IMG/VR virus record: IMGVR_UViG_3300043436_004687
Location: 71,099-135,098 of that record
DNA: 64,000 nt
Reading direction: 5' to 3' (one strand)
DNA from: a virus
The first letter of the stretch is position 1, and each line of letters starts with the position of its first letter. This document shows, one piece after another, positions 15,349-34,837 of the stretch. The translations under genes and the position numbers were made by a program. Under the pieces are notes generated by a model. The model saw only the letters and a program-made list of their open reading frames with translations. It did not search any database and was not told where the DNA came from.

Positions 15349-16506
15349 TTAGATTGCTCGAACCGAGCAATTTTTTAATTTAGTTAAATTTACCCCAATT
15401 GGTTTAAATTCATCAAAATATATTTTTCTTATATTAATAGCACCATTTATATCTCTATCAATATTTAATTCACAATAAGTACAGTTATATTCCCTATCAG
15501 TTACCTTCAATTCATATTTAACTCTACCACAACAACTACATGTTTTACTTGTGTATTCTTCATCAACTATTTTTACTTCTTTACCATATTTTGTAGCCTT
15601 ATAATTTAATAAATTAACAAATGTTGTTATACTAGATTTAGTATAACTTTTTGATATATTATTTTGCTTTTTACTACCATCTTTCTTAATTAAATTACTT
15701 ACTTCTAATTTACCTATAACTAATATATCTTCATTTAAATTTTTAATATATTTTATTGACTCTTTATGTAAATAATCATTACAACTATTTTTTAATTTAG
15801 TGTAGGCTTTATTTAATTGTTTTTTAGTTTTATTTCTGTTTTTAGAACCCTTCTTTTTCTTACTTAAACTAATATTTAGTTTATTTATTCTATTATTATA
15901 ACTATTAATTAAATTAACACTAAATCGTTTTATTTTAACACCGTTGCTGTCAGTTAAAAGTGTTTTTAAACCTAAATCACAACCTATAACATTAGTATTT
16001 TTATTTTCTTTTACTCCAATTTCATAATCACAAATAAATGTTAAATAATAACTATTATTTTCTCTAATTAATTTAACCGTTTTATATTTAGTAGGAAATA
16101 GTTCTGTTCCTTTAAACCCTTTTTTTAATTTAGGCAAATAAACTAAATTATTTTTAACTCTAACATCAGTCTCAACAAATTCTATACTATTAAAATTATC
16201 TTTGCCTTTAAATTTAGGAAACCCCTCACCTCTAAAGAAATTATTAAATGATTTATCTACTCTAAATATTATTTCAGATAATGATTTGTTAGGCACATCT
16301 TTCCAAGATGTATCATAATTTTTAATATCAACTAATTCTTTCTTTTGTTCAAATTTATTTAAATATTTACCAGTTGCTTGATAATACCATATTTTTTCTT
16401 GTAAAGCTACATTATAAAGATAATTACATTTTCTTAACCAAAAATCAAATTTTTCTTTATCTGTTTTAGTTATAATTAATTTAATTTTCTTTACTAGATT
16501 CATCAA
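15349..16506 (-). CDS. tnpB: TnpB (OrfB) RNA-guided nuclease family protein with an intact zinc finger
   Basis: RuvC-I GCDLGLK, RuvC-II DEEYTSKTC, zinc finger CSCCG...CTYC, RuvC-III DRDINGAINI. Confidence 0.8.
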   Translation of the reverse strand: MMNLVKKIKLIITKTDKEKFDFWLRKCNYLYNVALQEKIWYYQATGKYLNKFEQKKELVDIKNYDTSWKDVPNKSLSEIIFRVDKSFNNFFRGEGFPKFKGKDNFNSIEFVETDVRVKNNLVYLPKLKKGFKGTELFPTKYKTVKLIRENNSYYLTFICDYEIGVKENKNTNVIGCDLGLKTLLTDSNGVKIKRFSVNLINSYNNRINKLNISLSKKKKGSKNRNKTKKQLNKAYTKLKNSCNDYLHKESIKYIKNLNEDILVIGKLEVSNLIKKDGSKKQNNISKSYTKSSITTFVNLLNYKATKYGKEVKIVDEEYTSKTCSCCGRVKYELKVTDREYNCTYCELNIDRDINGAINIRKIYFDEFKPIGVNLTKLKNCSVRAI

Positions 16507-17101
16507 TTATATTTTTTAATTTTTCTTTATTTTTATAGCTTCTTAAACCATAAAGTCTTGACGAAAATACGTGTATAATTGACATAAGGTCATTTATCAT
16601 TTCTTCTTGTGGTGATAATTTTTCTTCATCGATTATAATTAATTCTACATTATTTTCTTTACATAAATTTTCAATTAATTCAAATCCAAATCTAACTAAT
16701 CTATCTTTATGAGCAATTATTAATTTATTTATTTTTTGTGTTGTAATTTCATTTATTAATTTTAAAAAGTATTTTCGTTTATAATTTAGTCCAGAACCAA
16801 TATCTGAATATAGTTCTGATATATTGATTTGGTTTATTGTACAATAGTTTTCAACAAATTCTATTTGTGTTTTCAAATCATTTTTTTGTGAATGTGATGA
16901 AACTCTACAATAGCATATTGTTTTTAATTCAATTAGTTCGTTTAATGGTTTATTAATATAATTTAGATATTGTTTATGCGAATATATTTTTCTCCCTTTA
17001 GGTGTAGTTATATCAGGTTTAAGAATATTTAAATTATCCCATCTTTGTATTGTTCTAATGTGAACATTTAATAGTTTAGCAAATTTACCACTTGAATACA
17101 T
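16481..17101 (-). CDS. tnpA: IS607-type TnpA serine recombinase with an N-terminal MerR-like HTH
   Basis: HTH FAKLLNVHIRTIQRWD followed by the catalytic YCRVSSHSQKNDL. It overlaps tnpB by 26 nt. Confidence 0.75.
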   Translation of the reverse strand: MYSSGKFAKLLNVHIRTIQRWDNLNILKPDITTPKGRKIYSHKQYLNYINKPLNELIELKTICYCRVSSHSQKNDLKTQIEFVENYCTINQINISELYSDIGSGLNYKRKYFLKLINEITTQKINKLIIAHKDRLVRFGFELIENLCKENNVELIIIDEEKLSPQEEMINDLMSIIHVFSSRLYGLRSYKNKEKLKNIIDESSKEN

Positions 17102-20963: not shown

Positions 20964-20970
20964 ATTTTGG

Positions 20971-21045: not shown

Positions 21046-21054
21046 ATATATTAT

Positions 21055-21240: not shown

Positions 21241-21311
21241 ACCACCATTAATAATTATCTTTTTGTCTATTTCTAGAACTGTTTAAAATCACATAATAAA
21301 ATATAATTATT

Positions 21312-22508
21312 TTAACCAAGTGTTACCACTTGACTTGGATAAACAGCAATACCCTCTATTCCATTAGCAAACGCATTTGGAACTGCTTTTCTTAATATGT
21401 TATAACTACCATTTACATCAGAGTTAATAAATTTATTTTCACCTCTAACTTTATACATACCTCGTTTATATCTATATCCACTAAACCCATTTGAATATTT
21501 ATCACCGTAAACTGGTATATAATCTAAATTTAAAAAACTAGCCTTGCTTGTATAACTTTCTTCTTGAAATAATACTTTAATACCGCTTAATAACCCTTTA
21601 TATTGTAACATACTAACTAATTTATCAAATGGTATTGAAACAAAATTTTGGTTGTTTCTCTTTCCCATATTAATTTCTTGTTTCCAAAAATTATTATGTC
21701 CAACAATAATTGTGTTTAATTCATTTTCAAGACACCAATCAATTAAATATTTACTACTTTGATGCAAATAAGTCTCAATTTTATTATTCCTAATTAAACC
21801 TAATTTAATTATTTTAGTGGTAGCTTTTCTTGATTTTAATTCAGCTAATTTTTTATTGAAAAATTGATTTATACTTTTTAATGGTCTACCATTAATAATG
21901 ATTGGTTTAACACCATTCTTATTTGAAGTTATAGTCATTAAATTATTTACCCCTAAATCAATAGAACAATAATTATCATTATTTTCTTTTAGTAATATGT
22001 TTTCTCTTTCATATACAATATTTATTTTAAATTTATTATAATATGGTTTAACTTGTACCTCAATTATTTTTTTATCTATATTTTTAACTTTAATTTGAAT
22101 ATTTAAAGTTGATAAACCAATCAAACCGTTTTTAATATGTTTAGTTAAAACACTATTATCAATAAAAATAGCTGTAAATCTACCATCTTTTTTTAAATAT
22201 TTAGGTAATTTTGGTTTACCTGTGAAACTATTTTTATTTGCTTTATATACTTTAGTTGCTTCAAAAAATCCTTTCCAATTTGCATCAAGTGTTCTAATAA
22301 CACATCTACTAACTCTAGTTGGTAATGCCTTATATTCTGGCAAATCTTTACAAATATTAAACAAATATAGTTTTCTTAACCAATTACCATTAGATATAAA
22401 CTCATTTCTTATAATATAGTTTACAGAATTATATAAGTTTTTAGTTTTGAATGTTAATTCATCTAATTCTTTTGTTTTATTTACAATATGTGATTCAACT
22501 AATTTCAT
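21312..22508 (-). CDS. TnpB-like protein (RuvC D/E/D residues present) lacking the zinc finger; solo copy
   Basis: RuvC-I CSIDLGVNN, RuvC-II QEESYTSKAS, RuvC-III NSDVNGSYNI. There are no Cys residues between RuvC-II and RuvC-III. Paralog of the gene at 25002..26183. Confidence 0.65.
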   Translation of the reverse strand: MKLVESHIVNKTKELDELTFKTKNLYNSVNYIIRNEFISNGNWLRKLYLFNICKDLPEYKALPTRVSRCVIRTLDANWKGFFEATKVYKANKNSFTGKPKLPKYLKKDGRFTAIFIDNSVLTKHIKNGLIGLSTLNIQIKVKNIDKKIIEVQVKPYYNKFKINIVYERENILLKENNDNYCSIDLGVNNLMTITSNKNGVKPIIINGRPLKSINQFFNKKLAELKSRKATTKIIKLGLIRNNKIETYLHQSSKYLIDWCLENELNTIIVGHNNFWKQEINMGKRNNQNFVSIPFDKLVSMLQYKGLLSGIKVLFQEESYTSKASFLNLDYIPVYGDKYSNGFSGYRYKRGMYKVRGENKFINSDVNGSYNILRKAVPNAFANGIEGIAVYPSQVVTLG

Positions 22509-22569
22509 TGTGTATTAATATATACTCCTTTATTATAAATATAAAACATTTTTTAAAAAAATTCAATAA

Positions 22570-22953
22570 TTACGAAGTTTTATCTTCATACAAAACAACC
22601 TTAATTTTTAAACATTTTTGTTTAGCATAACTAACTAAATCCCCAATTACCTTAGATTTACCATCCCAAAAACAAATCAAAGCATCTGCATAATCAACTA
22701 TTTCTTTATTTCTAATTGAAACTGCTGTTAAGTTATATTTATACCAATCTGGCGGGAAATCTTTTATTCTATAATTATTTTCTTTAGCCCAAATTTCACC
22801 AAATTTATCAGGACCTTGAAAACATTTACATGAAATAACTTCAATTTCAGTTTTATTTTTAAGCATAAAATCACAAGTATCCTTTAATAATTTATAATCA
22901 TTAAATCGTCTACCCCCAGTAATAATTACCTTAAACATATATTTTATTATCAT
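22570..22953 (-). CDS. SLOG-family protein (DUF2493-like, GGRR motif)
   Basis: N-terminal VIITGGRRFNDY resembles the phage-associated DUF2493/SLOG family. Confidence 0.4.
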   Translation of the reverse strand: MIIKYMFKVIITGGRRFNDYKLLKDTCDFMLKNKTEIEVISCKCFQGPDKFGEIWAKENNYRIKDFPPDWYKYNLTAVSIRNKEIVDYADALICFWDGKSKVIGDLVSYAKQKCLKIKVVLYEDKTS

Positions 22954-23290
22954 TTGTTACCAAAGTATCAAACTTATTAAAATCAACATCAACCTCATTC
23001 ATTTCCCAATAAGGATTGTTTCGTGGGTTGTATTTTATTTCAATTAAATCTTCAACATTAATTGGTTTGGATAGGATTTCCAATTTTTCACATTCAACCC
23101 AAGCACAAACTCTTTTATTAGCACCATCGAATATTTCTTCAGAAGTTTTTTTATTATTTTTCAATAAACAATTAGTTAATCTAAATGTAACCTCATTCGG
23201 ATTATAATAAAATATTAGTTTACTAGGATATGTTACCTTCCATTTTTTAAAATTTTTACCCCTGGATAAATTAAATCTAACTTTAAACAT
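22931..23290 (-). CDS. hypothetical protein
   Basis: 119-aa ORF. Confidence 0.4.
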   Translation of the reverse strand: MFKVRFNLSRGKNFKKWKVTYPSKLIFYYNPNEVTFRLTNCLLKNNKKTSEEIFDGANKRVCAWVECEKLEILSKPINVEDLIEIKYNPRNNPYWEMNEVDVDFNKFDTLVTNDNKIYV

Positions 23291-23732
23291 TTTGAATTAT
23301 TTCCCTTATTTTCATTATTAATCTACCAAGATGGTTTTCACCTAAATTTGGGTTAGTATTCAAATCAACACCCCAAAATAAATCGTTGTGATAATTACCC
23401 TCTTGTATATTTTGGTTACCAGTTTCAATTAACTTACTCCTAAAAGGTTCTTTATTGAATTTTAATGAGAGACATTCCTCCATAACTTTCAGTTTTATAT
23501 TATCCCAATTATCTACAAATGGTTCCATATTTATTCGTTCTTGAGATAACTTTTTAATATTATATGGGGTTATTGTTTTACTAGTACAAAGTTCTTTCCA
23601 ATCAATAGAATTAAATTTTTCACTCATATAAACATGTTCAACTGATTGGAAAGTTCTACCCTTGTAAGTTATTTCAACCAGAGCCATATTAGATAACCAC
23701 CTAAATTCTGGGTTTTTGAATGAATGGATCAT
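23283..23732 (-). CDS. NADAR-domain protein (YbiA/DUF1768-like ADP-ribose N-glycosidase family)
   Basis: FRWLSNMA...YKGRTFQSVEHVYMSEKF matches the NADAR core (FLSNF...EH.fQ..Kf). Confidence 0.55.
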   Translation of the reverse strand: MIHSFKNPEFRWLSNMALVEITYKGRTFQSVEHVYMSEKFNSIDWKELCTSKTITPYNIKKLSQERINMEPFVDNWDNIKLKVMEECLSLKFNKEPFRSKLIETGNQNIQEGNYHNDLFWGVDLNTNPNLGENHLGRLIMKIREIIQNV

Positions 23733-24886
23733 TAAATTAATTTTTTAAATTCTTCAATTTCTAATTTATTTACCATTTTACCAACTTCTGGACCAGATAC
23801 ATTATATTTGTTAATCACATCCTGACCACTAATACTTAATTTATACTTAATAAAAGCATTTAAGAGATTATTATCTATTTCATGAACTAAATGTCCAAAC
23901 CTTCTTAATTGTTCATCAGATAATCTTATGTTTGATTGTAATTTCTTAGCTAATGGTGCGTTTTCAATTGTTAAACCCAATAAAGAAACTAAAAATGAAA
24001 TTGATTTTACTTCCTCACTTGAATAGGTAAGAGTATTTAACTGTTTTTTTAATAAATCAACAGAATTATTTCTCAATAAAAAAGCTAATAGAATAACATA
24101 ATCCTTTTCTTCAATAAAATCACTATCAACATTCAACCCCCTAAATATTTCTTTAAAGAGATCATATCTTTTATATAAATCCAATAAAAATTTGATTGAT
24201 TGTGCTGATTGAATTGATTTTAATAATTCATCTCTAATTCTTTCATTTGAAACTCCGTTTAAACTAGAATTTTTTAATAATTGTTTATCAACATCCTCAT
24301 CAATTTTTGAGTTATATCTAGCACTAAACCTACAAAATCTTAAAATCCTTAGTGGGTCTTCTTCAAATCTATCTTCTGCTTTACCAACAGTTCTAACAAT
24401 ATTATGTTTAATATCACTAATACCACCAACCAAATCAATTATTTCACCCTTATCAATGTCATAATAAAGAGCGTTGCAAGTAAGATCTCTTCTTTCAGCA
24501 TCGGTGTTTATTGAAACACCTAATTTAACTTCTGGGTGTCTTCCACTAGAATCTGAACGCATAGTTGCTATTTCATATTCATCATTATCGGTGAAAACAT
24601 TGATAACACCGAACGACTTCCCAGTGGCTAATGTTTTATAACCAGATTGTTGTAACATATTTTCAACACTATCTGGTAAAGCATCGGTAACCAAATCATA
24701 ATCTTTTATTTTTTTCCCCAATAAAGAATCTCTAACGGCCCCACCAACAATAAAAATAGAATAATTATTATCTTTAAATAATTTATTCATTTTTTTTATA
24801 TCTTCTGGTACATTTATAGGGAATTTTAATCTAATTTCCCCATTTAAAGCCTCATTAAGCCTTTGCTTTATAAAATTTTTAATCAT
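23732..24886 (-). CDS. tRNA nucleotidyltransferase (CCA-adding enzyme) / poly(A) polymerase family, class II
   Basis: Head domain FIVGGAVRDSLLGKKIKDYDLVT, RRDLTCNALYYD, and neck LRILRFCRFSARYN. Confidence 0.7.
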   Translation of the reverse strand: MIKNFIKQRLNEALNGEIRLKFPINVPEDIKKMNKLFKDNNYSIFIVGGAVRDSLLGKKIKDYDLVTDALPDSVENMLQQSGYKTLATGKSFGVINVFTDNDEYEIATMRSDSSGRHPEVKLGVSINTDAERRDLTCNALYYDIDKGEIIDLVGGISDIKHNIVRTVGKAEDRFEEDPLRILRFCRFSARYNSKIDEDVDKQLLKNSSLNGVSNERIRDELLKSIQSAQSIKFLLDLYKRYDLFKEIFRGLNVDSDFIEEKDYVILLAFLLRNNSVDLLKKQLNTLTYSSEEVKSISFLVSLLGLTIENAPLAKKLQSNIRLSDEQLRRFGHLVHEIDNNLLNAFIKYKLSISGQDVINKYNVSGPEVGKMVNKLEIEEFKKLI

Positions 24887-25001
24887 GTACTATATTTTTT
24901 ATTAATTTTATTTATTTTAGCTCCCCTTGAAGAATACTTTTGTAGCCAATTACCGTTCATTAAAACTTATGAAAATCTAGGATTCTCACTTATCCCAATT
25001 T

Positions 25002-26183
25002 CTATAGATTAACTCTATATGGGTGAACGGCAACACCCTCTATTCCGTCAGCAAAAGCATTCGGAACTGCTTTTTTAAGTATATTATAACTTCCATTTAC
25101 GTCAGCATTAATAAGTGTATTACTCGCAGATTGAAATAACCCTCGCTTGATTCGTTTACCTACGTAAACCTCATGTTTAGTTATTTTTTCATTATCTAAA
25201 AATGAACACTTACTGGTATAACTCTCTTCATGTGTTATAAAATTAATTCCGTGTTTCTCACATTTATATGTAAGCATTTGAATTATTTTATAATAAGGGA
25301 TCTGAACAAAGTTCTGGTTGTTGACTCTACCAATATTAATACCTTGTTTCCAATTCTCATTATAGCCAACAACAAGTGTATTTAATTCATTCTGTAAACA
25401 GAATTTAACAAGATAATCAGTTGATTTATGTAAGTAATCATTTACTTTACAATCTCTTTTAAAAGTTAACTTCTGAATACGTTTAGATGTCTTTACATTT
25501 TTAGGTAATGCGCTTTGGTAATTAGATTTTTGTTTATTGTAAAATTGATTTATGGATTTTAATGGTCTACCGTTAACTACTACAGGTTTAGTTCCTGCCT
25601 TGTTTGATGTTATAGTCATTAAATTGTTAAGTCCTAAATCAACTGAACTATAATGTTTATTATCTTTCTTTAAAGGTTGTTCTTTATGGTCATATATTAT
25701 ATTGATTTTAAATTTATTTGTTCTTGTGGGGATTACTTGCACTTCGATTAATTTACCAGTTGTTTGTAATGGTATTCTTAATTTAAGTGAAGATAATCCA
25801 ATTTTACCATTTTTAGGTTTAAGTATTGCTGTTTCATAAAACAAGGCAGTAAACTTTCCATTTTTAGGTAAATACTTGGGTAAATTAGGTTTAGCTTTAA
25901 ACAGTTGCTTATTAGCTCTCCATTTTTTAATACAAGAGAAGAATGATTGCCAGTTAGCATCTAAAGTTCTAAGAACACCACGAGCAATACGTACTGGTAG
26001 ACACTTATATTCTTCAATATCTTTACAGATGGTAAACATATCGAATTTAGAAATGTATTTACCAGTAGAAATAAATTCGTTACGGATAATGTAATTAGCT
26101 TTATTATAAAGGTTTTTACATTTAAACGTAATTTGGTTTAGTTCGATAGACTGATTAATGATATGTGATTCAACTAGCAGCAT
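25002..26183 (-). CDS. TnpB-like protein (RuvC D/E/D residues present) lacking the zinc finger; GC-richer paralog of the gene at 21312..22508
   Basis: RuvC-I SSVDLGLNN, RuvC-II HEESYTSKCS, RuvC-III NADVNGSYNI. Only one Cys where the CxxC...CxxC finger should be. Confidence 0.65.
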   Translation of the reverse strand: MLLVESHIINQSIELNQITFKCKNLYNKANYIIRNEFISTGKYISKFDMFTICKDIEEYKCLPVRIARGVLRTLDANWQSFFSCIKKWRANKQLFKAKPNLPKYLPKNGKFTALFYETAILKPKNGKIGLSSLKLRIPLQTTGKLIEVQVIPTRTNKFKINIIYDHKEQPLKKDNKHYSSVDLGLNNLMTITSNKAGTKPVVVNGRPLKSINQFYNKQKSNYQSALPKNVKTSKRIQKLTFKRDCKVNDYLHKSTDYLVKFCLQNELNTLVVGYNENWKQGINIGRVNNQNFVQIPYYKIIQMLTYKCEKHGINFITHEESYTSKCSFLDNEKITKHEVYVGKRIKRGLFQSASNTLINADVNGSYNILKKAVPNAFADGIEGVAVHPYRVNL

Positions 26184-26320
26184 TTAATAAGTGTAATAAT
26201 TTTCTTTACTCTACATATAAATATATAGAAAAATGTAAAAGTTTGATTTAGATAAAGAATAAATTATTAAATAATGTTAATAACTAATTTTTCGTATGAA
26301 AACATATATTTTCTTAGAAT

Positions 26321-26584
26321 TTATTGAACAGTTAAATTACCCCATTTTTCTTTTTGTATGTCGTAATAAGTCATATCTTTAATTTTAGATGGGATATATT
26401 CACCTGGTTTAGAGGATATGTGATATTTATTTTTGCACAAATCACATTGATAAATGGAAAGTTCATCTCTCCATGGATTTTTATCACTTCTTGATAAGAT
26501 TGAGAATAATGCTTTTTTAGCTTCCCATTTTGTATTATAAGATTTTTTATTACAATTCATATTAAACATATTTTTAAAATACAA
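26321..26584 (-). CDS. hypothetical Cys-containing protein
   Basis: 87-aa ORF with YQCDLCKNKYH. Confidence 0.35.
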   Translation of the reverse strand: MYFKNMFNMNCNKKSYNTKWEAKKALFSILSRSDKNPWRDELSIYQCDLCKNKYHISSKPGEYIPSKIKDMTYYDIQKEKWGNLTVQ

Positions 26585-26658
26585 ATATACTAAAAAAAAT
26601 TATATTATAACAATAAAATTTATATTTATTATTATAACAAAGACCTAAAAAAAATATT

Positions 26659-26748
26659 ATGTGTAGTTGCAAACCAAAACCTCAAACACAAACTGTGATT
26701 TCAATTCAAAAACCAGCTCAACCAGCTCCGACAAATCAACCAAAATAA
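26659..26748 (+). CDS. possible small plus-strand peptide (29 aa, MCSCKPKPQTQTVISIQKPAQPAPTNQPK)
   Basis: Hand translation. It is followed immediately by a strong plus-strand terminator at 26747-26777. Confidence 0.2.
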   Translation: MCSCKPKPQTQTVISIQKPAQPAPTNQPK

Positions 26749-26777
26749 CGATACTTTAAAGTATCGTTATTTTTTTA
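26747..26777. terminator. rho-independent terminator (aacgatacttt/aaagtatcgtt + T7)
   Basis: Perfect 11-bp palindrome followed by ATTTTTTTAT on the plus strand. Confidence 0.55.
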
Positions 26778-27070
26778 TCTTGAACATATTTTTTATTGTT
26801 ATAAAATATTGTAGTTACTCTAAACAAATATTCACCACTTTTTAATAAAAGTTTACCCTTTAACATACAATTATTGACTTTTTCTGTAAGAATATTTTTT
26901 TTTGTTTTAACTTCAATAAGTTCAATTACCTTAAACGAATTTTCTTTATTAAAATTAAAGCTTAACATATCACCATCAATGCTAATATTAACATTCTGAT
27001 TAGTTATTGTTTGACTAATTACCTTATTAGAAACAAGAAAAATAAAAAAAATTATAAATAGATTTTTCAT
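26756..27070 (-). CDS. hypothetical secreted protein or lipoprotein-like
   Basis: N-terminal signal-like MKNLFIIFFIFLVSNKVISQ. Confidence 0.4.
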   Translation of the reverse strand: MKNLFIIFFIFLVSNKVISQTITNQNVNISIDGDMLSFNFNKENSFKVIELIEVKTKKNILTEKVNNCMLKGKLLLKSGEYLFRVTTIFYNNKKYVQDKKITIL

Positions 27071-27137
27071 ATATTAAAAATTTAATAATCAAAATTACAA
27101 AAAAAATATTAAAATACCAAATATTTTTTATTTTTTT

Positions 27138-28394
27138 TTAATTACAATTACCTTTTAAATTAAAACCAGTTTTACCAACTGGTGAATAAACACTAACTTT
27201 AGTTTCTGAATCATTAACGTCGTATTTTAAAATACCCTTTTTCATGGTATAAAATACAAATTCTCTTTGACCAGAATCCCATAGTTGTTTTAACTTAATA
27301 ACACCATTTTTAATTTCATTTCTACTATCCTTTAAATAATCATAATTTGAGTCATTTAATAAGGTATTTAATAATTCATCAAAACTATTAAATTTTTTTA
27401 AATCCTTTAAACCCTCCATTGCTGGTATTTTAGGGTTGGGAATATTGATTTGCGTTAATTCAGCTACATATAATGGGACTAATTTCCATTCTTTATAATT
27501 GTGTTGTTTATCCACAAAATAACCAGTATCCGCAATTATGTTTCCATTAGAAGTTATTACCATCCTATCTGGAATTGAACCTGGGGAGATGTTCATTTCT
27601 CCACCATCATTTAATTGTTGTTCAAAACTAAGATAACCATTTTTTTCGGAACTTTGGGAACCATCGTTTTTAGAAAAAGAAATCTCACAAGGTTTAACCT
27701 CATTCTTACCCTCTAAAAATACATCTAATCTAACATATTGATCTTTAGTGTATTTTTCATCATCCTTATTATAACCATCCCAAGGAACATCACCAATGTT
27801 GGTTACCTTATCGATTTTTATATTTAAATTATTTTGCTTTAGATATGAATTTACTAAATTAGACATTTTGTTAACCCTCATATTAGCTAACTCACCACTT
27901 TTTAAATTATTTTGATTTGGTACTTGAGATTCTGATGCTGTTATTTTTATAGAGTACTTAACATTACTATTTGAATTTAAAAACCCCTTTAGGCTATTTA
28001 ATTTGCTTAAAACACTACCCTCATCAATTTCGTAAGCACCACTTTTAAAACTATTTGTTAAATTTATTGAATATTCAGCTTTTTTATTTTCTTTTCTGAT
28101 GTTTGAATTTATGTTGGTCAATTGACTTATTAAATTTTTATTTTCTTTTGTTGTATTTTGATAAGCTTGTGAAAAAGATGGGTTTGCCATAAGTGTTGAT
28201 ATGACTGCGGCAGTTATAAATTTTCTTTGGTTTGATTTTAAAACTGATATCAATCTGTTGATTAATTCAGATGAATTTACTTCATCTATAGTTTCACCTA
28301 ATATAAAATCAATTACTTTTTGATCGGTTTTATTTAAATGTTGTTTATTTTCAAATTCTAATAATGCAACCCTAACCTTATCTTTAACAAACAT
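27138..28394 (-). CDS. hypothetical protein
   Basis: 418-aa ORF with an internal hydrophobic segment ITAAVISTLMANPSFSQA. Confidence 0.45.
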   Translation of the reverse strand: MFVKDKVRVALLEFENKQHLNKTDQKVIDFILGETIDEVNSSELINRLISVLKSNQRKFITAAVISTLMANPSFSQAYQNTTKENKNLISQLTNINSNIRKENKKAEYSINLTNSFKSGAYEIDEGSVLSKLNSLKGFLNSNSNVKYSIKITASESQVPNQNNLKSGELANMRVNKMSNLVNSYLKQNNLNIKIDKVTNIGDVPWDGYNKDDEKYTKDQYVRLDVFLEGKNEVKPCEISFSKNDGSQSSEKNGYLSFEQQLNDGGEMNISPGSIPDRMVITSNGNIIADTGYFVDKQHNYKEWKLVPLYVAELTQINIPNPKIPAMEGLKDLKKFNSFDELLNTLLNDSNYDYLKDSRNEIKNGVIKLKQLWDSGQREFVFYTMKKGILKYDVNDSETKVSVYSPVGKTGFNLKGNCN

Positions 28395-28417
28395 AAATTC
28401 TTTTAATATAAATAGAA

Positions 28418-28446
28418 AAAAACCTTAATTAATTAAGGTTTTAAAG
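28418..28446 (-). terminator. rho-independent terminator (aaccttaatt/aattaaggtt)
   Basis: Perfect 10-bp palindrome preceded on plus by A6 (a U-run on minus) and overlapping the stop of 28433..28786. Confidence 0.5.
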
Positions 28447-28786
28447 TGTTTTTGATTAATTTTATTTCAATTAATTCTTTTATAAAATCACCATGGCAAA
28501 ATAATGGAGCACAATAACAGACCAAATTTACATTACCATTTTTAGCTTTTAAATATATTCTATTTAATTCATCACAAATTTGAGTATTTTTATTATTTAT
28601 TTCATTTAATAGATATTCTTTATATTTTTCAATTGCTTCTTCACGAGAATTGCATTGAAATAAAGCTTTAGTATTAATAATGTCTTTAGAACCTGTATAT
28701 GGATTACCGAGTATTGAACCTCGACCAACATAAACATCTTCTTTGGAAGATATGAAATGTTTAGATTTATTTACTACTTTAATCAT
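28433..28786 (-). CDS. DUF4326-like phage protein
   Basis: VYVGRGSILGNPY...LVCYCAPLFCHGD pattern typical of DUF4326. Confidence 0.45.
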   Translation of the reverse strand: MIKVVNKSKHFISSKEDVYVGRGSILGNPYTGSKDIINTKALFQCNSREEAIEKYKEYLLNEINNKNTQICDELNRIYLKAKNGNVNLVCYCAPLFCHGDFIKELIEIKLIKNTLKP

Positions 28787-28975
28787 TTATCTTAAAAACC
28801 ATCTTCGATATGTTCTTCGGTAATATAACCAACCCATGGGTGGTAAGGCTTTCTATCAATAAAATGGTCATTACCATATAATTCAATATCTTCTAATTCT
28901 TCTTCTGTCATATTTATATAATAAGTATTTTAAAATAAAAAACCATTATAATATTATAATGGTTTTTATAGTTTA

Positions 28976-29401
28976 TTATGCCTTATCTTCACCCTCTTTC
29001 TTAGCAAATAACGTCCTAACGGATTCTTGAAAAACCTCATATTTATCATAACCATGTTTAGATAAAACACCAGAGAAAGTTTTTACGTCAGCTGTATTAG
29101 TCACTGGTAATTCTTTATCATGAGAATAAGAAACCCCAGCTAAAACACTCTCAATTGCAATTACTTTTTGTTCAGCGGTTAATTGTTCAAAAATACCTTG
29201 ATTTACGGTTAATATCACATCTTCACCAGTTAAATGATAAGTAATGTCATTAGTCTTATGAACTTTAATCACATCTTTTTTCTGTCTTTCATCACCTAAG
29301 ACTTTAATATTCATCAAATTATCCAAATTTGTGGATAAGATAACCGAATCAAATTCGTTTTGTACATCATCATGCACTTCATCATACTTTCTTCTTGCCA
29401 T
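28976..29401 (-). CDS. hypothetical protein
   Basis: 141-aa ORF. Promoter motif at 29432-29442. Confidence 0.45.
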   Translation of the reverse strand: MARRKYDEVHDDVQNEFDSVILSTNLDNLMNIKVLGDERQKKDVIKVHKTNDITYHLTGEDVILTVNQGIFEQLTAEQKVIAIESVLAGVSYSHDKELPVTNTADVKTFSGVLSKHGYDKYEVFQESVRTLFAKKEGEDKA

Positions 29402-29452
29402 TTTTAATTAATTTAATTGTTAAAATTTATATTGCAAATATATAACTTATTT

Positions 29453-30478
29453 TTATTCTTGCAAATTATTTTCTCTAATTTTTTCTAATAATTTTAATTC
29501 AGTTTCACTAATATCATCAAATTCTAATAATTCCAATATTATATACATATCACCCCTAGAATTGGAGTTGTAAACTTTCATACCCTTACCTTTGACCCTA
29601 AGATTTGAGTTTATCTTACTATTTTTGGGTATTGTAATCTTAATTTTAAGACCTTCTATAGTATTAATTTCTTTTTCACACCCTAAAATTAAATCATAAT
29701 ATTTTAATTTTAATTTACAAATTAAATTATCACCTTGTCTCTCAAATTCCTTATGCCTTACTTCATTAATAATAACCTCTAAATCACCGTGATTACCTGA
29801 TTTTATCTTATGGCCCTTACCATTCAATATTAACCTATTACCACCATAAACACCAATTGGTATGTTTATTTCTTCCTCTATAGTTTCATCTACTTTACCC
29901 GATTTACAATTACCACATTTAGTTTTATATGTTTTACCAGTTTGATTACAACTTTGACAAGGCTTTTGTTGGATGAATTGTTGGTTACCCATTTGGAATA
30001 CTTCGCTTTTAATACCCTGACCATTACAAGACTTACAAGTTTCTTTTTCACCACCACTACCGTTACAAGTATTACAATCATTAGTGATTTTATAAGTAAC
30101 TTTTTTATTCACTCCATTAAAAATATCTTCTAATGAAAGGTTGAATTGAATTCTAGCATTTTGTCCCTTTTCTACTGGTTGTCTTTGAGAATATCTATTT
30201 CCTCTATTAAACATTTGATTAAATATATCATTCATATCAAATCCATCAAATCCGTTTGAATTTTCTTGGTGGCCGAATTTATCATAATGAGCTCTTTTTT
30301 TAGGGTCCGATAAATATTCGTTAGCTTCAGCTATTTCTTTAAATTTTTCTTCAGCTTCTTTATTGTCTGGATTTAAATCTGGATGAAATTTTTTAGATAA
30401 ATTTCTATAAGCTTTTTTTATTTCTCTTTCATTAGCGGTTTTTTCTAAACCAAGAATTTCATAATAATCTCTTTTCAT
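29453..30478 (-). CDS. dnaJ: DnaJ (Hsp40) co-chaperone, type I
   Basis: J-domain DYYEILGL...[11 protein letters not shown]-rich linker, four CxxCxGxG zinc-finger repeats, and a C-terminal domain. Confidence 0.8.
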
Positions 30479-30513
30479 TTTATTAACTATTGTATAACAT
30501 TAATTTTTTAACT

Positions 30514-30873
30514 TTAATTATTTATATAATGTAAATAATCCTCAATTTGTTTTTTATAATAAACCGCTTCTTGACGTGCTTCTCTTAATATTTCCCAACC
30601 ATGACCATCATAATTTTTTTCATGCATTAAAATATCACTTGTTTTAATTAATTTATCCAAAACACTATCTAAAGAATAGGGTCTATTTAAACCTAAAAAT
30701 GAAGTAATAAATTCATTATTAAATTCTTTTTCAAGGTGTTCAGGGTGTTCAGATTTTGAAAACACATCATCAGCTTCTTTTAATAATTGAAGGGTCTTAT
30801 CGAACCCAATTACTTCCGAAACCTTACCTAAAAACAATTGTCTTATTAATTTTTTACTATTTTCTTTTGACAT
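30514..30873 (-). CDS. hypothetical protein
   Basis: 119-aa ORF. Confidence 0.4.
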   Translation of the reverse strand: MSKENSKKLIRQLFLGKVSEVIGFDKTLQLLKEADDVFSKSEHPEHLEKEFNNEFITSFLGLNRPYSLDSVLDKLIKTSDILMHEKNYDGHGWEILREARQEAVYYKKQIEDYLHYINN

Positions 30874-31139
30874 TAATTTTTATTTAACTTATTTTCCAAT
30901 TCACTAATCTTATCTTTTAATTTTCGAATAACCTGACTCACAGCATAATCATTTACCCACTTTGGGTCTGGAATGAATGATAACACAACAGATTCATTTC
31001 TATTTAAATCATATAGAATACCATCTGCTGGTTGTTTTATAAATTCATCTAATGATGTTATTCTTAATCCTTCAAAAGTGGCAACAATAACATTACCTTT
31101 CTTATACTCTTCTAGTATTTTATCTTTTAAATTTTCCAT
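30873..31139 (-). CDS. hypothetical protein
   Basis: 88-aa ORF. Confidence 0.35.
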   Translation of the reverse strand: MENLKDKILEEYKKGNVIVATFEGLRITSLDEFIKQPADGILYDLNRNESVVLSFIPDPKWVNDYAVSQVIRKLKDKISELENKLNKN

Positions 31140-31443
31140 TTTTTATTAAGTTAAAATTTAACAATTCATTCGTTTTTATAATTGCTGATTGCATCACTTC
31201 TAATCTAGAATTAAAACTAAAATTAGATTTATAATTTTTAATATGAAACATAAACCTCTCACACTTTTTACGGTGGCCGAATTTACTTTTTATATTAATA
31301 AACCACCCAATAGAATCAAAATATTCTACTATATAAGCATATTGAATAATTTTTGACATACCATAAAACAATGATTTATTATCAAAAATATTAGTTTCAA
31401 TTAACCAATTTTCAAAATCACTTTTTACTTTATCTGTTAACAT
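31120..31443 (-). CDS. hypothetical protein
   Basis: 107-aa ORF. Confidence 0.35.
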   Translation of the reverse strand: MLTDKVKSDFENWLIETNIFDNKSLFYGMSKIIQYAYIVEYFDSIGWFINIKSKFGHRKKCERFMFHIKNYKSNFSFNSRLEVMQSAIIKTNELLNFNLIKNGKFKR

Positions 31444-31455
31444 ATTTTTAAAAAT

Positions 31456-31677
31456 TTAAGAACTAACAACATCCGTATAATTTTTAATTGATTGGTCAAC
31501 TAAAATATTATCTCTAATTGATAATTGAATGGGTCTTAAATTCATTGGAACACGAAGATAATTGTATCCATTATTTAAGTTATCCATATCATCTAAGTTT
31601 TTAAAAGAAATATAAGCAAAAGTCCCATTTTCCGTTATTTCAATGTGAAACACTTCAATATTTGTTAAATTTTTCAT
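31456..31677 (-). CDS. hypothetical protein
   Basis: 73-aa ORF. Confidence 0.3.
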   Translation of the reverse strand: MKNLTNIEVFHIEITENGTFAYISFKNLDDMDNLNNGYNYLRVPMNLRPIQLSIRDNILVDQSIKNYTDVVSS

Positions 31678-31700
31678 ATTTTAATTATTTATTTATTTAT

Positions 31701-32243
31701 TTATTTTTTATCATTCATAATTAACCCTTCGGATATCCAACTTTGATCTTGTATTAAACGATATGTTCTAACCACAGCAAAATTAGTAATCTTAAAATAT
31801 TCAAATTTTATCCCATAGTCATCTGCTTTTAATTTAGATAATACAGCAGTTTCAAGTTTCTCTGGTGTAATACCACCTAAATCGTTATTCCATATAAAAT
31901 TAGCAACTTCACTCATTGCAATATTTTGAAGTGTTTTTTCTGGGTGATATAAAGTTTGATATAATTTTTCAATATTAGATATTGAATAACCAAATGAACT
32001 ATTTAAAGTTATTGTTTTCAAATCTTTGGAGGTTAAGGTTTGCATTGGCATTTCCGTAACTCTTAATCTATTTTCTTGAATGAAAATACTATCTAAATAT
32101 GGTAATCTAAAATAGATACCACCCTCCAATCTTTTTATTTGTTTACCATTACGAACCCTAACACCACTTTGCCAAGGTTGTACTATAACCCATATCTTAA
32201 CAGCATTAAATATATATTCAAAAAAATCTTTTACTTGATTCAT
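31701..32243 (-). CDS. hypothetical protein
   Basis: 180-aa ORF. Promoter motif at 32264-32274. Confidence 0.45.
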   Translation of the reverse strand: MNQVKDFFEYIFNAVKIWVIVQPWQSGVRVRNGKQIKRLEGGIYFRLPYLDSIFIQENRLRVTEMPMQTLTSKDLKTITLNSSFGYSISNIEKLYQTLYHPEKTLQNIAMSEVANFIWNNDLGGITPEKLETAVLSKLKADDYGIKFEYFKITNFAVVRTYRLIQDQSWISEGLIMNDKK

Positions 32244-32334
32244 ATCGGTTGTTCTAACTTTAATGCAAATATATAATACAATTTTTACTTTACCAAACTA
32301 TTTATTATTTATTTTTATATTTTAAATTAATAAT

Positions 32335-32997
32335 ATGGAATATAGAGTTATATTAACACAAAATGGTGAATTTAAACAAAATTTCCTAATCACCAAAAAT
32401 AAAAGAACTGCTTTTGATAAATTCAAGGAAATAAAACGAAAGTCAGAAAAAGTTTTATTTGAAGTACAGCATGTGAACACAAAAAAAATATTTCCAGTTA
32501 AACATATGCTTTATATTGTTAAAGAGTATGAATCAACTGATATTAAAAGAGCAATCCCAGATGGGAACGGTTCTTATATTGAAGAACCATTGTTATTTGA
32601 TAAATGGTTCGTTATGGCCTCTGAAAAATATAAAAAAGAAGAAAAATTTGCCATTTACGGTATGGACACTAGAGCCGAAAGGCAACCTATTAGTGGGGTA
32701 ATGAAAATTTTAATGAAAGGTCTTACAGACACAAAACAAAATAAACAAGTTATTGTGGTGCATAATAAATTAGTTATTTACAATGACCAAAATTTTGATA
32801 TGATATTCTGTAAATGTATTAAGGATTGTAAAAGACTACATGACACACTTTATAAGACCGCTGTTGCAATTAAACTTAAAAACCTTATGTTTATGGGTAT
32901 TGCCTCAAATGCCTCGTTATATCACATAAATAAAACAATTATTCAATGGACTGGTTGGGATTATAATAAAGTTAGAAGACAGACAACTAGACCGTAA
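32335..32997 (+). CDS. hypothetical protein (one of very few plus-strand genes)
   Basis: 220-aa ORF in a divergent intergenic region, with a downstream plus-strand terminator. Confidence 0.45.
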   Translation: MEYRVILTQNGEFKQNFLITKNKRTAFDKFKEIKRKSEKVLFEVQHVNTKKIFPVKHMLYIVKEYESTDIKRAIPDGNGSYIEEPLLFDKWFVMASEKYKKEEKFAIYGMDTRAERQPISGVMKILMKGLTDTKQNKQVIVVHNKLVIYNDQNFDMIFCKCIKDCKRLHDTLYKTAVAIKLKNLMFMGIASNASLYHINKTIIQWTGWDYNKVRRQTTRP

Positions 32998-33059
32998 ATT
33001 ATTTTCTATTTCTTTATTGTTACATCTTTAAATTCACAATAATCACATTATGACATTCT

Positions 33060-33090
33060 CCCAATCTTTAAAGAAAATTGGGTTTTTTGT
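33060..33090 (+). terminator. rho-independent terminator for the plus-strand gene (cccaat...attggg + T6)
   Basis: 6-bp stem plus TTTTTTG. It overlaps the stop codon of the minus-strand TnpB-like gene. Confidence 0.45.
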
Positions 33091-34294
33091 TTAAAGATTT
33101 ATTCATAATATTAAAATTATGAATCACATTAGATAAATCTAATGGCTCTGCCATAAGAGCAATATGGTTATTAAAGTATCTGTTTAAAATATTAATAGCA
33201 GCATTTAAATCTCTATCTATTTCTATATCATTACTTAATTTAACTGTTCTATCACTTAAATTAATTTTATTTTTAAATTGTTTACCAGTTAATGAATTAG
33301 TTTGTGTTGTATATTGTTCATTTTGCTTTAGAATATCTGTTTTATACTTAAAACTTTTTTGTTTCAATAATTCAATAAACATATTAAGATTACTCATCCC
33401 AAATGATTTACTTATCTTTTTATATTTATTCTCATAATTATTCATTAATTTTTTAACGGATAAATCACCAATAACTATAGTTTTATAGTTCATGTTCAAT
33501 AATTGTTTACTCTGAACATGTAGAGTTTGTTTGACTTGCTTATTTTTCTTATTATATAATTTATTAATAGTTATTTTTAATTTTTTATATTTTCTACTAC
33601 TATTATTTTTATTACTTAATTTACTCTGAACTTTAGCAATTTGTTTTAAATAATATTTAGATATCTGTTTAGATTTATTTGTAATAATAATTTGATTACC
33701 TTTATTATCTACACCAGTACCTAATCGTTTTAATCCTAAATCAATTGCTAATATTTTATTTTCTTGTGTAATAGTATCCACATATATCAATTCTTCTTCA
33801 ATAACAATATCACACAACCATTTATTATTAACAAATTTAACCCTAATTTCTTTAATATCTAATTTAGTTAAATCCAAATGTGATTTATAATTGAGTTTAA
33901 TTTTATTAATTGTGATTAATTCATTAGAATTAACAACCCAACCAGATTGATTAAATATGATAGTATGAAATTTATTAATATCCTTTATTTTATATGGCGA
34001 TTTAGCTGTTTTATCTTTTTTAATTAATTCGAAAAAACCCCTATATGAAGAATAAACTTCTTTAGATATCCGCTGACATGCTTTAGAATTTAATTTACAT
34101 AAATTACTATTTTTTCTTAATACTGTTATTTCTTTATCTAAGTCATAATTATGTCTAATTGATTTATTTAATTCATAAGACTCTTGTTCAAGATCAATTA
34201 GTTTATTCCATAATTCATTTCTTAATGATGATACCTCATGAAGTTGTTCAACTTGTAATTTATTAGGAAACAATCTAATTATGTAAGTTTTCAT
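33068..34294 (-). CDS. TnpB-like protein (RuvC D/E/D residues present) lacking the zinc finger; third solo copy
   Basis: RuvC-I LAIDLGLKR, RuvC-II NEQYTTQT, RuvC-III DRDLNAAINI. No Cys residues between RuvC-II and RuvC-III. Confidence 0.65.
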   Translation of the reverse strand: MKTYIIRLFPNKLQVEQLHEVSSLRNELWNKLIDLEQESYELNKSIRHNYDLDKEITVLRKNSNLCKLNSKACQRISKEVYSSYRGFFELIKKDKTAKSPYKIKDINKFHTIIFNQSGWVVNSNELITINKIKLNYKSHLDLTKLDIKEIRVKFVNNKWLCDIVIEEELIYVDTITQENKILAIDLGLKRLGTGVDNKGNQIIITNKSKQISKYYLKQIAKVQSKLSNKNNSSRKYKKLKITINKLYNKKNKQVKQTLHVQSKQLLNMNYKTIVIGDLSVKKLMNNYENKYKKISKSFGMSNLNMFIELLKQKSFKYKTDILKQNEQYTTQTNSLTGKQFKNKINLSDRTVKLSNDIEIDRDLNAAINILNRYFNNHIALMAEPLDLSNVIHNFNIMNKSLNKKPNFL

Positions 34295-34395
34295 TATTTA
34301 CTTAAAGTATTTATATATAAATATACAGTAATTATACAAAAGTTTAAAATAATAAATGGTTCGTAAACCATTCCAATCTATTTTAACTTCTTCCA

Positions 34396-34617: not shown

Positions 34618-34620
34618 AGA

Positions 34621-34836: not shown

Positions 34837-34837
34837 A

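Follow-up and report, generated by a model that had tools for sequence, protein, structure and literature searches.

In ISDra2, an IS200/IS605 element whose TnpB is represented by PDB entries 8h1j and 8exa, a segment farther upstream in the omega-RNA forms a pseudoknot with the bases that directly precede the guide (PMC10097598), and this RNA overlaps the ORF 3′ end. Its TNB domain contains a CCCC zinc finger (C331, C334, C351, C354), and its tnpB gene adjoins a Y1 TnpA gene. The zinc finger is conserved in most TnpBs, and its loss in large TnpB branches has already been published; RIIIr-4, a major zinc-finger-less clade well represented in viruses, lacks the C4 finger, has histidine in place of the RuvC-III aspartate and is linked to RHH/MazE-like genes (Altae-Tran et al., 2023; PMC10691335). 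The NADxN TnpBs of the IS607 family lack the finger as well, carry the signature ESYTSK-x-SFLD...RIKRGLF...INADVNGSYNI and often have their own serine recombinase upstream. TldR proteins (TnpB-like nuclease-dead repressors), some of them phage-encoded, are products of solo genes that derive from tnpB and are accompanied by guide RNAs. Reportedly, they have lost the catalytic residues and direct their guides against host promoters. Phage homing endonuclease genes located between conserved phage genes cut genomes that lack them and spread by recombinational repair, neighboring markers co-spreading (review PMC13565253).

Here, we describe three solo tnpB genes, c1, c2 and c3, in a window of 64,000 nucleotides (positions 71,099 to 135,098 of IMG/VR record IMGVR_UViG_3300043436_004687), where they occupy gaps between genes of an AT-rich ~339-kb contig resembling a huge phage. 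They share the RuvC D/E/D center, the RNA overlapping the ORF 3′ end and the guide-pseudoknot-stem layout solved for ISDra2 (PMC10097598), while sequence identity to ISDra2 TnpB is only ~15–19%, all four zinc ligands are replaced by residues other than Cys and no TnpA adjoins them. The lack of the C4 finger is common to c1–c3 and RIIIr-4, whereas c1–c3 retain the RuvC-III aspartate. The NADxN signature and the missing finger connect c1 and c2 to the IS607 family, although neither has a recombinase of its own; a Helicobacter copy is 36% and gp662 of Bacillus phage G 44.6% identical to c2. The free-standing homing endonucleases Seg and Mob of phage T4 are a likely functional analogy; they belong to an unrelated protein family and recognize DNA through the protein itself instead of an RNA guide, and homing is only a proposal for c1–c3.

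Identity of the three genes and loss of the zinc finger

The ORFs given in the initial annotation are present, all on the minus strand, together with a zinc-finger-bearing IS607 element that served for comparison:

21312..22508, minus strand: tnpB copy c1, 398 aa, IS607-lineage "derived" TnpB, NSDVN RuvC-III motif, zinc finger absent
25002..26183, minus strand: tnpB copy c2, 393 aa, IS607-lineage "derived" TnpB, NADVN motif, zinc finger absent
33068..34294, minus strand: tnpB copy c3, 408 aa, "typical" DRDLN-type TnpB of a TnpB-only clade, zinc finger absent
15349..17101, minus strand: IS607 element, protein-coding part (tnpA and tnpB)
16481-17101, minus strand: tnpA of this element, serine recombinase
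15349-16506, minus strand: tnpB of this element, zinc-finger-bearing

All three are genuine TnpB genes, as the initial annotation had suspected: their scores exceed the curated thresholds set for NCBIfam NF040570 (RNA-guided endonuclease TnpB) and for the Pfam families OrfB_IS605 and Cas12f1-like_TNB. AlphaFold2 models of c2 (mean pLDDT 83.5) and c3 (mean pLDDT 87.1) have ISDra2 TnpB (8h1j) as top match in Foldseek searches against the PDB (E 1e-15 and 7e-17, respectively), and this protein is also the best sequence match of c3 (E 6e-10), with which it shares the DRDxN motif. The RuvC residues of c1–c3 line up with those of the zinc-finger-bearing IS607 TnpB; the triad is invariant among homologs of c2 (D182/E320/D361; alignment of 36 sequences) and of c3 (D185/E326/D362; 33 sequences), and neither misalignment nor substitution was found. 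The claim that the genes lack an adjacent TnpA also held, none being found next to c1, c2 or c3.

By sequence, c1 and c2 (53.7% amino-acid identity) group as diverged members of a very large IS607-associated NADxN "derived" TnpB clade, the closest relatives of c1 (74–80% identical) forming a sub-branch apart from that of c2. A serine recombinase ends at the tnpB start in 39 of 160 c2-family loci, and a Helicobacter phage resolvase-plus-TnpB pair shows the same KRGLF...NADING motif. c3, ~21% identical to either, belongs to a smaller TnpB-only "typical" DRDxN clade with IS200/IS605-style ends; neither a serine recombinase nor any recurring neighbor ORF was found at its 37 family loci.

The reported absence of the CxxC...CxxC finger, which reads CSCC...CTYC in the IS607 TnpB, is confirmed by the Cys positions: c1 has no Cys after residue 259 and c3 none after residue 161, its finger region reading TTQTNSLTG...KLSNDIEIDRD. 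c2 keeps only the isolated residues C308 and C326, of which C326 is the single relic Cys of the first CxxC. In alignments with zinc-finger-bearing relatives the Cys are replaced residue for residue at conserved loop length, and no cryptic set of Cys/His ligands emerged in c1–c3. With the four Cys substituted and the loop kept, c1–c3 would most likely fold the small finger domain without zinc; in the c2 model confidence is weak where the finger is replaced (pLDDT 57–59 for residues 321–340 and ~75 for residues 341–360).

The C-terminal 140 residues lack CxxC in 118/120 homologs of c2 and 120/120 of c3, and no CxxC is present in any of 81 c2-related viral-contig ORFs (of 83 related ORFs, those with an identifiable RuvC-II motif). 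Finger-less homologs include complete IS607 elements, the Helicobacter IS607-type TnpB and gp662 of Bacillus phage G, while more distant c3 relatives carry two CxxC motifs in 80 and none in 15 of 124 cases. The four Cys between RuvC-II and RuvC-III have been substituted independently in the c1/c2 clade and in the c3 clade.

RNA scaffolds, candidate guides and element ends

The initial annotation had pointed to the 3′ flanks as a place for omega-RNA-like structures, and a conserved covarying scaffold was indeed found at the 3′ end of all three genes:

21278..21383, minus strand: c1 omega-RNA scaffold, covariation-supported part (60 family members and tabulated pseudoknot pairings)
21383-21378 with 21363-21358, minus strand: c1 scaffold helix
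21354-21350 with 21341-21337, minus strand: c1 scaffold hairpin
loop GCTGTT (21347-21342) with terminal AACAGT (21283-21278), minus strand: c1 pseudoknot
24952..25067, minus strand: c2 omega-RNA scaffold, supported part
25067-25062 with 25047-25042, minus strand: c2 scaffold helix
25038-25034 with 25025-25021, minus strand: c2 scaffold hairpin
loop GCCGTT (25031-25026) with terminal AACGGT (24957-24952), minus strand: c2 pseudoknot
33050..33160, minus strand: c3 omega-RNA scaffold, four covarying helices including the pseudoknot
loop ATGGCA (33154-33149) with terminal TGTCAT (33055-33050), minus strand: c3 pseudoknot

In the c1/c2 family, pairing across 60 sequences amounts to 93.5% in the two helices within the ORF 3′ end. 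These contain 79 double-change cells compared with 17.9 in shuffles, a value that 0/500 shuffles attain, and most of the changes fall on synonymous third-codon positions. In the pseudoknot, loop GCNGYU and the terminal ARCNGU are paired in 69/72 cells; C-G, U-A and A-U pairs are all seen at a single position, among them a swap between c1 and c2. In a family-wide permutation test this long-range pairing was marginal (p 0.003 versus 0.03 in a control window). The c2 scaffold has two additional hairpins around and past the stop codon. In the c3 family, the four helices are 89.9% paired with 82 double-change cells versus 29.4 in shuffles (again 0/500), the pseudoknot helix reaches 99.2% with AU/CG swaps, and the stop codon of c3 lies within the loop of the last hairpin. 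Each gene is predicted to end in a conserved structured RNA of omega-RNA form, the last six bases of the element being the pseudoknot strand. The candidate guides follow directly:

21262..21277, minus strand: putative c1 guide TCTAGAAATAGACAAA, flanking DNA directly after the scaffold end
24936..24951, minus strand: putative c2 guide AATTGGCTACAAAAGT, intergenic DNA upstream of the CCA-enzyme gene
33034..33049, minus strand: putative c3 guide AATGTGATTATTGTGA

These positions are simply adjacent phage DNA, and among relatives a different flank brings a different guide. In the window, the c1 guide has no other match at ≤2 mismatches, and no second targets were found for the c2 and c3 guides. 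The same ends delimit three insertion sequences:

21278..22543, minus strand: c1 insertion sequence (approximate), left end starting TATATTTAT, right end finishing ...TTTTAAACAGT
24952..26240, minus strand: c2 insertion sequence (approximate), by homology to L003, L084, L085 and L246
33050..34362, minus strand: c3 insertion sequence (approximate), right end finishing ...GGGAGAATGTCAT, left end short and without hairpin
34363..34366, minus strand: candidate target-adjacent motif (TAM) TTAC, directly 5′ of the c3 left end

Blastn homology of c1 to loci L247 and L091, both from different contexts, begins at 22543, and the right-end break comes after AAACAGT / GAAGCAGT. The four c2-homologous loci, from unrelated contexts, match from ~26240 to 24952, all end in ...AAGTTTTAATGAACGGT and then diverge. 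c3 shows 93% nucleotide homology over 34356-33048 to L244 and L245, which adjoin baseplate genes; its left end was placed by blastn homology from 34356 and extended to 34362 by eye. The c1 and c2 left ends are short (~35–56 nt) and of a type seen in TnpB-only derivatives found in several contexts. The short c3 left end lacks the hairpin of its 93% relative L244, which suggests that c3 may no longer be transposable. Since TTAC or TTAT immediately precedes the left end in those c3-family members where this end is long, we infer TTAY as the c3 TAM.

Neighboring genes and rival explanations

Between c1 and c2 lies a group of phage genes:

22570..24886, minus strand: genes for SLOG/YAcAr, an L5 gp82-like protein, NADAR and a CCA/poly(A)-polymerase-family enzyme (Pfam matches)
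22570-22953, minus strand: SLOG gene
23283-23732, minus strand: NADAR gene
23732-24886, minus strand: CCA-type nucleotidyltransferase gene

The initial annotation had described two paralogs, "copies 2 and 3", as bracketing these genes and copy 3 as GC-richer and hence acquired later. Two paralogs do exist and do bracket the genes, but they are the first and second ORFs, and one copy is indeed GC-richer, but it is c2 (0.288), with c1 at 0.231 and c3 lowest at 0.207; the wording holds only when the count starts with the IS607 TnpB as copy 1. Later acquisition of c2 finds no support, as its GC (0.288) and GC3 (0.203) are within the normal range of the window genes (means 0.265, sd 0.03, and 0.162, sd 0.034); the other TnpB genes are the unusually AT-rich ones.

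A composite transposon of ~5 kb, bounded by the c2 left end and the c1 right end and mobilizing the SLOG/NADAR/CCA-enzyme operon as one unit, could account for two related copies that bracket the operon in direct orientation and resemble each other in their left-end motifs and in the pseudoknots at their right ends. We consider it the least probable reading, and a highly improbable one, because the flanking copies are diverged (54% amino-acid identity, different sub-branches) and cargo homologs occur elsewhere without TnpB: in 21 other viral contigs no TnpB lies within 5 kb of 5 CCA-enzyme and 16 SLOG loci. The whole unit was found in the present phage only. The genes at 22570..24886 are context and not demonstrated cargo.

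Domestication, also raised initially, would make the three genes fixed RNA-guided weapons or regulators against the host or competing elements. Their solo occurrence in a phage, identical positions in all contigs of this phage, the missing left-end hairpin of c3 and the existence of exapted phage-encoded relatives (TldR) would fit. Counting against the reading as mobile elements, no empty insertion site was found, c1–c3 being in place in all these contigs. This reading is nevertheless unlikely: relatives at 93%, 90% and 80% identity occupy completely different gene neighborhoods with homology stopping sharply at the element ends, which argues for mobile insertion sequences and against domestication. 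Furthermore, in contrast to TldR, the triad does not vary and each putative guide is the flank of its own element; the guides vary with the flank among relatives and lack a second target in the window, and the family contains complete IS607 transposons. Somewhat less probable still is that finger loss marks decaying, inactive pseudogenes with frames still open. Conservation of the finger in most TnpBs (PMC10691335) speaks for such decay, but thousands of full-length homologs have invariant catalytic and neighboring residues (e.g., R344, R347, G348), the overlapping RNA is maintained by covariation, and members are found both within complete IS607 elements and at many independent insertion sites.

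Proposed mode of action and significance

It is highly probable that c1–c3 are three separate, intact, transposase-less TnpB insertion sequences with omega-RNA, from two finger-less clades, that would act as RNA-guided nucleases. Of the possibilities listed in the initial annotation, zinc-finger-less RNA-guided nucleases is the one supported by family, fold, triad and a covarying scaffold abutting the flank, with nuclease activity as a presumption; in the publications consulted we found no report of such activity for zinc-finger-less TnpBs. The omega-RNA would be transcribed from the ORF 3′ end into the right end and processed, its last six bases pairing, as covariation indicates, with the upstream hairpin loop to form the pseudoknot, and by position the next ~16 bases of flanking phage DNA would be the guide. 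Judging from the family, the TnpB-RNA complex would recognize a short motif plus a guide match, i.e., the uninterrupted insertion site, and the RuvC D/E/D center would cut there. Sister or co-infecting genomes without the element would be cut and recombinational repair would copy the element back in, leading to retention or homing, while movement to new sites would require a transposase in trans.

The loss of the zinc finger is clade-wide, accompanied by purifying selection, and not peculiar to the present phage. As c1–c3 belong to two finger-less TnpB lineages that are already known, the finding is real but ordinary.

Family membership and loss of the zinc finger

In the window, four TnpB genes are accompanied by a single transposase gene. 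The three TnpB genes studied here (c1, c2, and c3) are listed below together with the IS607 element, whose TnpB bears a zinc finger and serves for comparison.

TnpB genes, adopted element boundaries with the extent of blastn homology to relatives, and inferred guides, i.e., the 16 bases beyond each element end. The c1 right end (21278) follows the end motif common to the aligned flanks; for c3, the left end was moved out to 34362 by eye.
c1: 21312-22508, minus strand, tnpB without zinc finger; element 22543-21278 (homology 22543 to 21303); inferred guide TCTAGAAATAGACAAA
c2: 25002-26183, minus strand, tnpB without zinc finger; element 26240-24952 (homology about 26240 to 24952); inferred guide AATTGGCTACAAAAGT
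c3: 33068-34294, minus strand, tnpB without zinc finger; element 34362-33050 (homology 34356 to 33048-33050); inferred guide AATGTGATTATTGTGA
IS607 element, coding part: tnpA serine recombinase 16481-17101 and zinc-finger-bearing tnpB 15349-16506

The initial annotation had described c1, c2, and c3 as TnpB-like genes that retain the RuvC D/E/D residues but lack the CxxC...CxxC finger, and both parts of this description hold. With 148.6, 174.8, and 137.3 bits, respectively, the three ORFs pass the curated cut-off of 100 bits of NF040570 (NCBIfam, RNA-guided endonuclease TnpB), and all of them exceed the gathering scores of the Pfam families OrfB_IS605 and Cas12f1-like_TNB. AlphaFold2 models of c2 and c3 (mean pLDDT 83.5 and 87.1) are predicted to have the WED/REC/RuvC bilobed fold, and their top match in a Foldseek search of the PDB is the ISDra2 TnpB ternary complex (8h1j; TM-scores about 0.55-0.67). 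The RuvC-I Asp, RuvC-II Glu, and RuvC-III Asp are found at the canonical positions, are invariant across the homolog alignments, and align with those of the zinc-finger-bearing IS607 TnpB and, for c3, also with those of ISDra2 TnpB. The RuvC-III motifs read NSDVN, NADVN, and DRDLN in c1, c2, and c3, the Asp being kept in all of them. According to the scheme of Altae-Tran et al. (2023; PMC10691335), c1 and c2 are "derived" TnpBs with a NADxN motif, and c3 is, like the IS607 copy, a "typical" DRDxN TnpB.

The CCCC zinc finger in the TNB insert, the zinc-finger domain that is a usual though not universal feature of TnpB, is absent from c1, c2, and c3, none of which has Cys pairs. The last Cys of c1 is at or before residue 259, the residues of c3 after 161 contain no Cys, and the C-terminal third of c2 has two lone Cys, C308 ahead of RuvC-II and C326 within the finger region. 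In an alignment with relatives that bear the finger, its Cys are seen to be replaced position by position with the loop length kept: TSKTCSRCG...RGWFKCRECGYEENADING corresponds to TSK-CSFLD...RGLFQ-SASNTLINADVNG in c2, and TSQICSNCG...KCPHCGLEIDRD to TTQTNSLTG...KLSN-DIEIDRD in c3. Realignment in search of hidden Cys/His ligands yielded no ligand set, as the region has neither Cys nor His in c1 and one Cys plus scattered, non-conserved His in c2. Since some large TnpB branches are known to have lost the finger, its absence does not exclude membership in the family (PMC10691335).

Several known systems related to TnpB were considered as alternatives. No arrayed repeats typical of type V CRISPR-Cas12 are present in window 19000-36000, in which Rfam detects tRNAs only. 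TldR and other nuclease-dead TnpB derivatives have lost the RuvC catalytic residues, whereas these are kept and invariant in the c1, c2, and c3 families. In Fanzor and RuvC-II-rearranged TnpBs the catalytic Glu has moved to just upstream of the finger position (PMC13565253); here, it is part of the canonical E-x-Y-T-S/T motif. In RIIIr-4, a named clade without zinc finger, a His takes the place of the RuvC-III Asp (PMC10691335), and membership of c1, c2, c3, and the IS607 copy in this clade was rejected because they retain the Asp.

Lineages, element ends, and mobility

Loss of the finger is a property of whole lineages. In the C-terminal region, CxxC is missing in 118 of the 120 best c2 homologs and in all 81 c2-related viral-contig ORFs whose RuvC-II motif could be located (39-70% identity), among them gp662 of Bacillus phage G; a resolvase-plus-TnpB pair of a Helicobacter phage has the same ...KRGLF...NADING signature. 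The c1/c2 lineage is very large: at least 7,696 matches below 1e-10 came from the 8,000 scored candidates, and viral contigs contribute no fewer than 459 loci. In 39 of 160 fetched c2-family loci, tnpB begins precisely where a serine recombinase ends, and the c1/c2 lineage is therefore IS607-associated, with finger-less TnpBs in complete transposons. Directly upstream of c1 and c2 a serine-recombinase TnpA is absent; they are TnpB-only derivatives of this lineage. The nearest relatives of c1 (74-80% identity) sit in another sub-branch than those of c2, so that the two represent separate arrivals and no duplication. The third copy, c3, is only about 21% identical to either. CxxC is missing from the C-terminal region in 120/120 of its best homologs, and its tight clade (only 13 representatives below 1e-30 among 1.84 billion proteins) is nested within a looser group of zinc-finger-less relatives. 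As most proteins at about 30% identity to c3 retain both CxxC pairs, the finger was lost here a second time, independently. Neighbour clustering revealed no recurring transposase near c3-family genes, and a regex scan for the Y1 transposase motif had no match, which is weak negative evidence given that the regex is unvalidated. As the initial annotation had stated, no transposase gene adjoins c1, c2, or c3.

All three genes lie in units with discrete boundaries. Nucleotide homology to relatives (blastn) breaks off sharply; four independent c2-type elements have the common end ...AAGTTTTAATGAACGGT and diverge beyond it, c1-type elements end in ...AAACAGT or ...GAAGCAGT, and c3-type elements in ...GGGAG(A/T)ATGTCA(T/G). 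The relatives occupy many different contexts: those of c3 at 93% identity adjoin baseplate genes, a 90% identical relative of c2 adjoins DUF932 and another TnpB, and a c1 relative at 80% identity is found in yet another gene context. Domestication by the phage, one of the explanations offered initially, finds no support, given such close relatives in unrelated neighbourhoods and the sharp ends of homology. We conclude that c1, c2, and c3 each represent, most likely, a non-autonomous TnpB insertion sequence. Empty insertion sites were not found, every contig of the same phage from other samples having the elements in place; exact look-ups with the CCA enzyme or with the 73-aa protein encoded next to c3 retrieved such contigs and no others. 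Searches of viral contigs yielded no relatives for the 220-aa ORF and NADAR, and megablast of window 20000-36000 against GenBank phages gave no match. Several TnpB elements occur together in other contigs too: a c2-like copy and a 423-aa TnpB lie 0.6 kb apart with a left-end motif in common (locus L246, 4001-7045), and IMG/VR contigs 3300035682_002088 and 3300045988_163575 each carry c2-like and c3-like copies.

The SLOG/NADAR/CCA-enzyme genes (22570-24886) had been described as cargo bracketed by the second and third copies, possibly in a composite-transposon-like module. The bracketing paralogs are c1 and c2 (53.7% amino-acid identity), the first and second ORFs. A composite transposon would have near-identical flanking copies, and these are 54% identical; moreover, the c1-to-c2 block is seen in this phage only, and homologs of the cargo occur elsewhere without TnpB, none being found within 5 kb of CCA-enzyme homologs (5 viral contigs) or SLOG homologs (16). 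The GC-richer copy is c2 and not c3, and its values (GC 0.288, GC3 0.203) fall within the spread of the window's genes, which removes the argument for later acquisition. c1, c3, and the IS607 tnpB are AT-richer than average, and the tnpB genes of the relatives compared are mostly AT-richer than their own flanks, too.

At the left ends, c3-family members with long left ends have a hairpin resembling the right-end hairpin, directly preceded by TTAC or TTAT. In c3, TTAC (34366-34363) is followed by a short left end without hairpin. A 93% relative (locus L244; 3860-4000 vs window 34295-34400) has about 60 more left-end bases including a CCCAC...GTGGG hairpin, again with TTAC before it. From these motifs we infer TTAY as the putative target-adjacent motif (TAM) of c3. 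No consistent motif was resolved in the left flanks of c1 and c2. c3 may no longer be a transposase substrate, and may represent a left-end-truncated, immobilised copy with intact gene and omega-RNA, the guide-RNA scaffold of TnpB. At 34359-34376, just past the stop of the 73-aa ORF, lies a perfect hairpin of 7 bp (AATGGTT-TACG-AACCATT) with a T-rich run behind it; the structure looks like a terminator and overlaps both TTAC and the beginning of the c3 left end. IS607 tnpA, c1, c2, and c3 each have the 9-mer TATATTTAT on the minus strand 20-42 nt ahead of their start codon (17121-17129, 22535-22543, 26217-26225, and 34317-34325), which accounts for four of its seven minus-strand occurrences in the 64-kb window. 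It is also present in left ends of relatives from other contigs and is probably a promoter or left-end motif common to otherwise unrelated TnpB elements.

Covarying RNA scaffolds and candidate guides

A covariance search of the 3' flanks, suggested by the initial annotation, uncovered covarying scaffolds in both families. In the c3 family (21 sequences), the final ~110 element bases fold into four helices that are 89.9% paired, with 82 cells changed on both sides compared to 29.4 in shuffles (0/500 shuffles reach the observed value); slid controls collapse. RNAalifold on the MAFFT alignment of the c3 tails recovered just two of these helices because of indels, and the remaining ones were defined manually before counting. 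A pseudoknot helix, 99.2% paired with AU/CG exchanges, joins the first-hairpin loop (AUGRCA) to the six terminal element bases (UGYCAU), and the stop codon lies inside the loop of the last hairpin. In the c1/c2 family (60 sequences), two helices within the 3' end of the ORF are 93.5% paired, with 79 double-change cells versus 17.9 in shuffles (again 0/500), and the pairs that vary in the first helix involve synonymous third-codon positions. A pseudoknot links the eight-base loop of the second helix to the last six element bases (69/72 cells); C-G, U-A, and A-U all occur at one of its positions, and a compensatory change there distinguishes c2 (GCCGUU/AACGGU) from c1 (GCUGUU/AACAGU). In about 90 c2-family tails, an automatic search for the long-range stem mostly picked up chance AT-rich stems, and an own-versus-other permutation test for this stem was marginal relative to its control; we therefore relied on the codon-anchored helices and the ends defined by homology breaks. 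The best-conserved nucleotide stretch between c1 and c2 is the ORF 3' end (82% over 102 nt, 21336-21437 vs 25020-25121), which fits a double constraint from the protein and an overlapping RNA.

Computational prediction hence points to an omega-RNA scaffold that extends from within the 3' part of the ORF into the right end, where a pseudoknot adjoins the guide. The scaffold stops where homology in the flanks breaks off, and the guide-pseudoknot-stem layout is the same as that solved for the ISDra2 omega-RNA (PMC10097598). No second match to any inferred guide with up to two mismatches exists in the window, and an Rfam scan of 14000-36000 returned tRNAs only and no known omega-RNA or intron family.

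Genomic setting and proposed function

The parent JGI metagenome contig, Ga0453969_0000002, has 339,459 bp; the window has a GC content of 25.5% with nearly all genes on the minus strand, and the surroundings of the TnpBs look like an accessory region of a huge phage. Neighbouring genes encode a CCA/poly(A)-polymerase-family enzyme, NADAR, SLOG/YAcAr, DUF4326, a DnaJ homolog, an SPFH protein, a polynucleotide-kinase-like ATPase, and several PHROG families of unknown function. Three tRNA genes were called by ARAGORN and two further tRNA-model matches by Rfam, one near c1 (20892-20963; 42.6 bits, above the gathering score) and one to the tRNA-Sec model (20518-20599, below it). The tRNA cluster adjoining c1 (19637-21044) is thus bigger than the ARAGORN calls, and a 41-nt repeat at 19637-19677 resembles 20514-20554. 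Genes at 14112-15014, 17547-18299, 22570-24886, and 28433-28786 form a putative RNA-repair/ADP-ribose-processing island (polynucleotide-kinase-like ATPase with tRNA-ligase CPD-like tail, R2K ATP-grasp, CCA-type enzyme, NADAR, SLOG, and DUF4326), in which the three TnpB elements and the IS607 element appear to be embedded.

The suggestion that these proteins are zinc-finger-less RNA-guided nucleases is supported by family, predicted fold, catalytic triad, and covarying scaffold; DNA cleavage without zinc is predicted. Each TnpB would bind an RNA processed from the 3' end of its own element, and the complex would cut DNA with an uninterrupted insertion site, which would favour retention of the element or its homing among replicating or co-infecting phage genomes. 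A more specific scenario, to which we give little credence, is that c1 and c2 act in co-infection as RNA-guided homing endonucleases that cut related phage genomes devoid of them, recombinational repair driving co-conversion ("marker exclusion") of the intervening RNA-repair/ADP-ribose operon into competitors, with the zinc-free TNB loop as an adaptation of phage-borne TnpB lineages.

The finding is real, and the three elements are members of already known kinds and no new type of system. One genome combines three finger-less TnpBs, resulting from two independent losses, with a zinc-finger-bearing IS607 TnpB. With mapped ends, candidate omega-RNAs, and candidate guides, they constitute a convenient natural set for studying the role of the zinc finger and for testing whether TnpBs without zinc work as active, compact editors. 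In practical terms, their value is modest. Phages often encode TnpB (PMC12607003), and these elements add further examples to the view that huge phages frequently carry TnpB elements as passengers.
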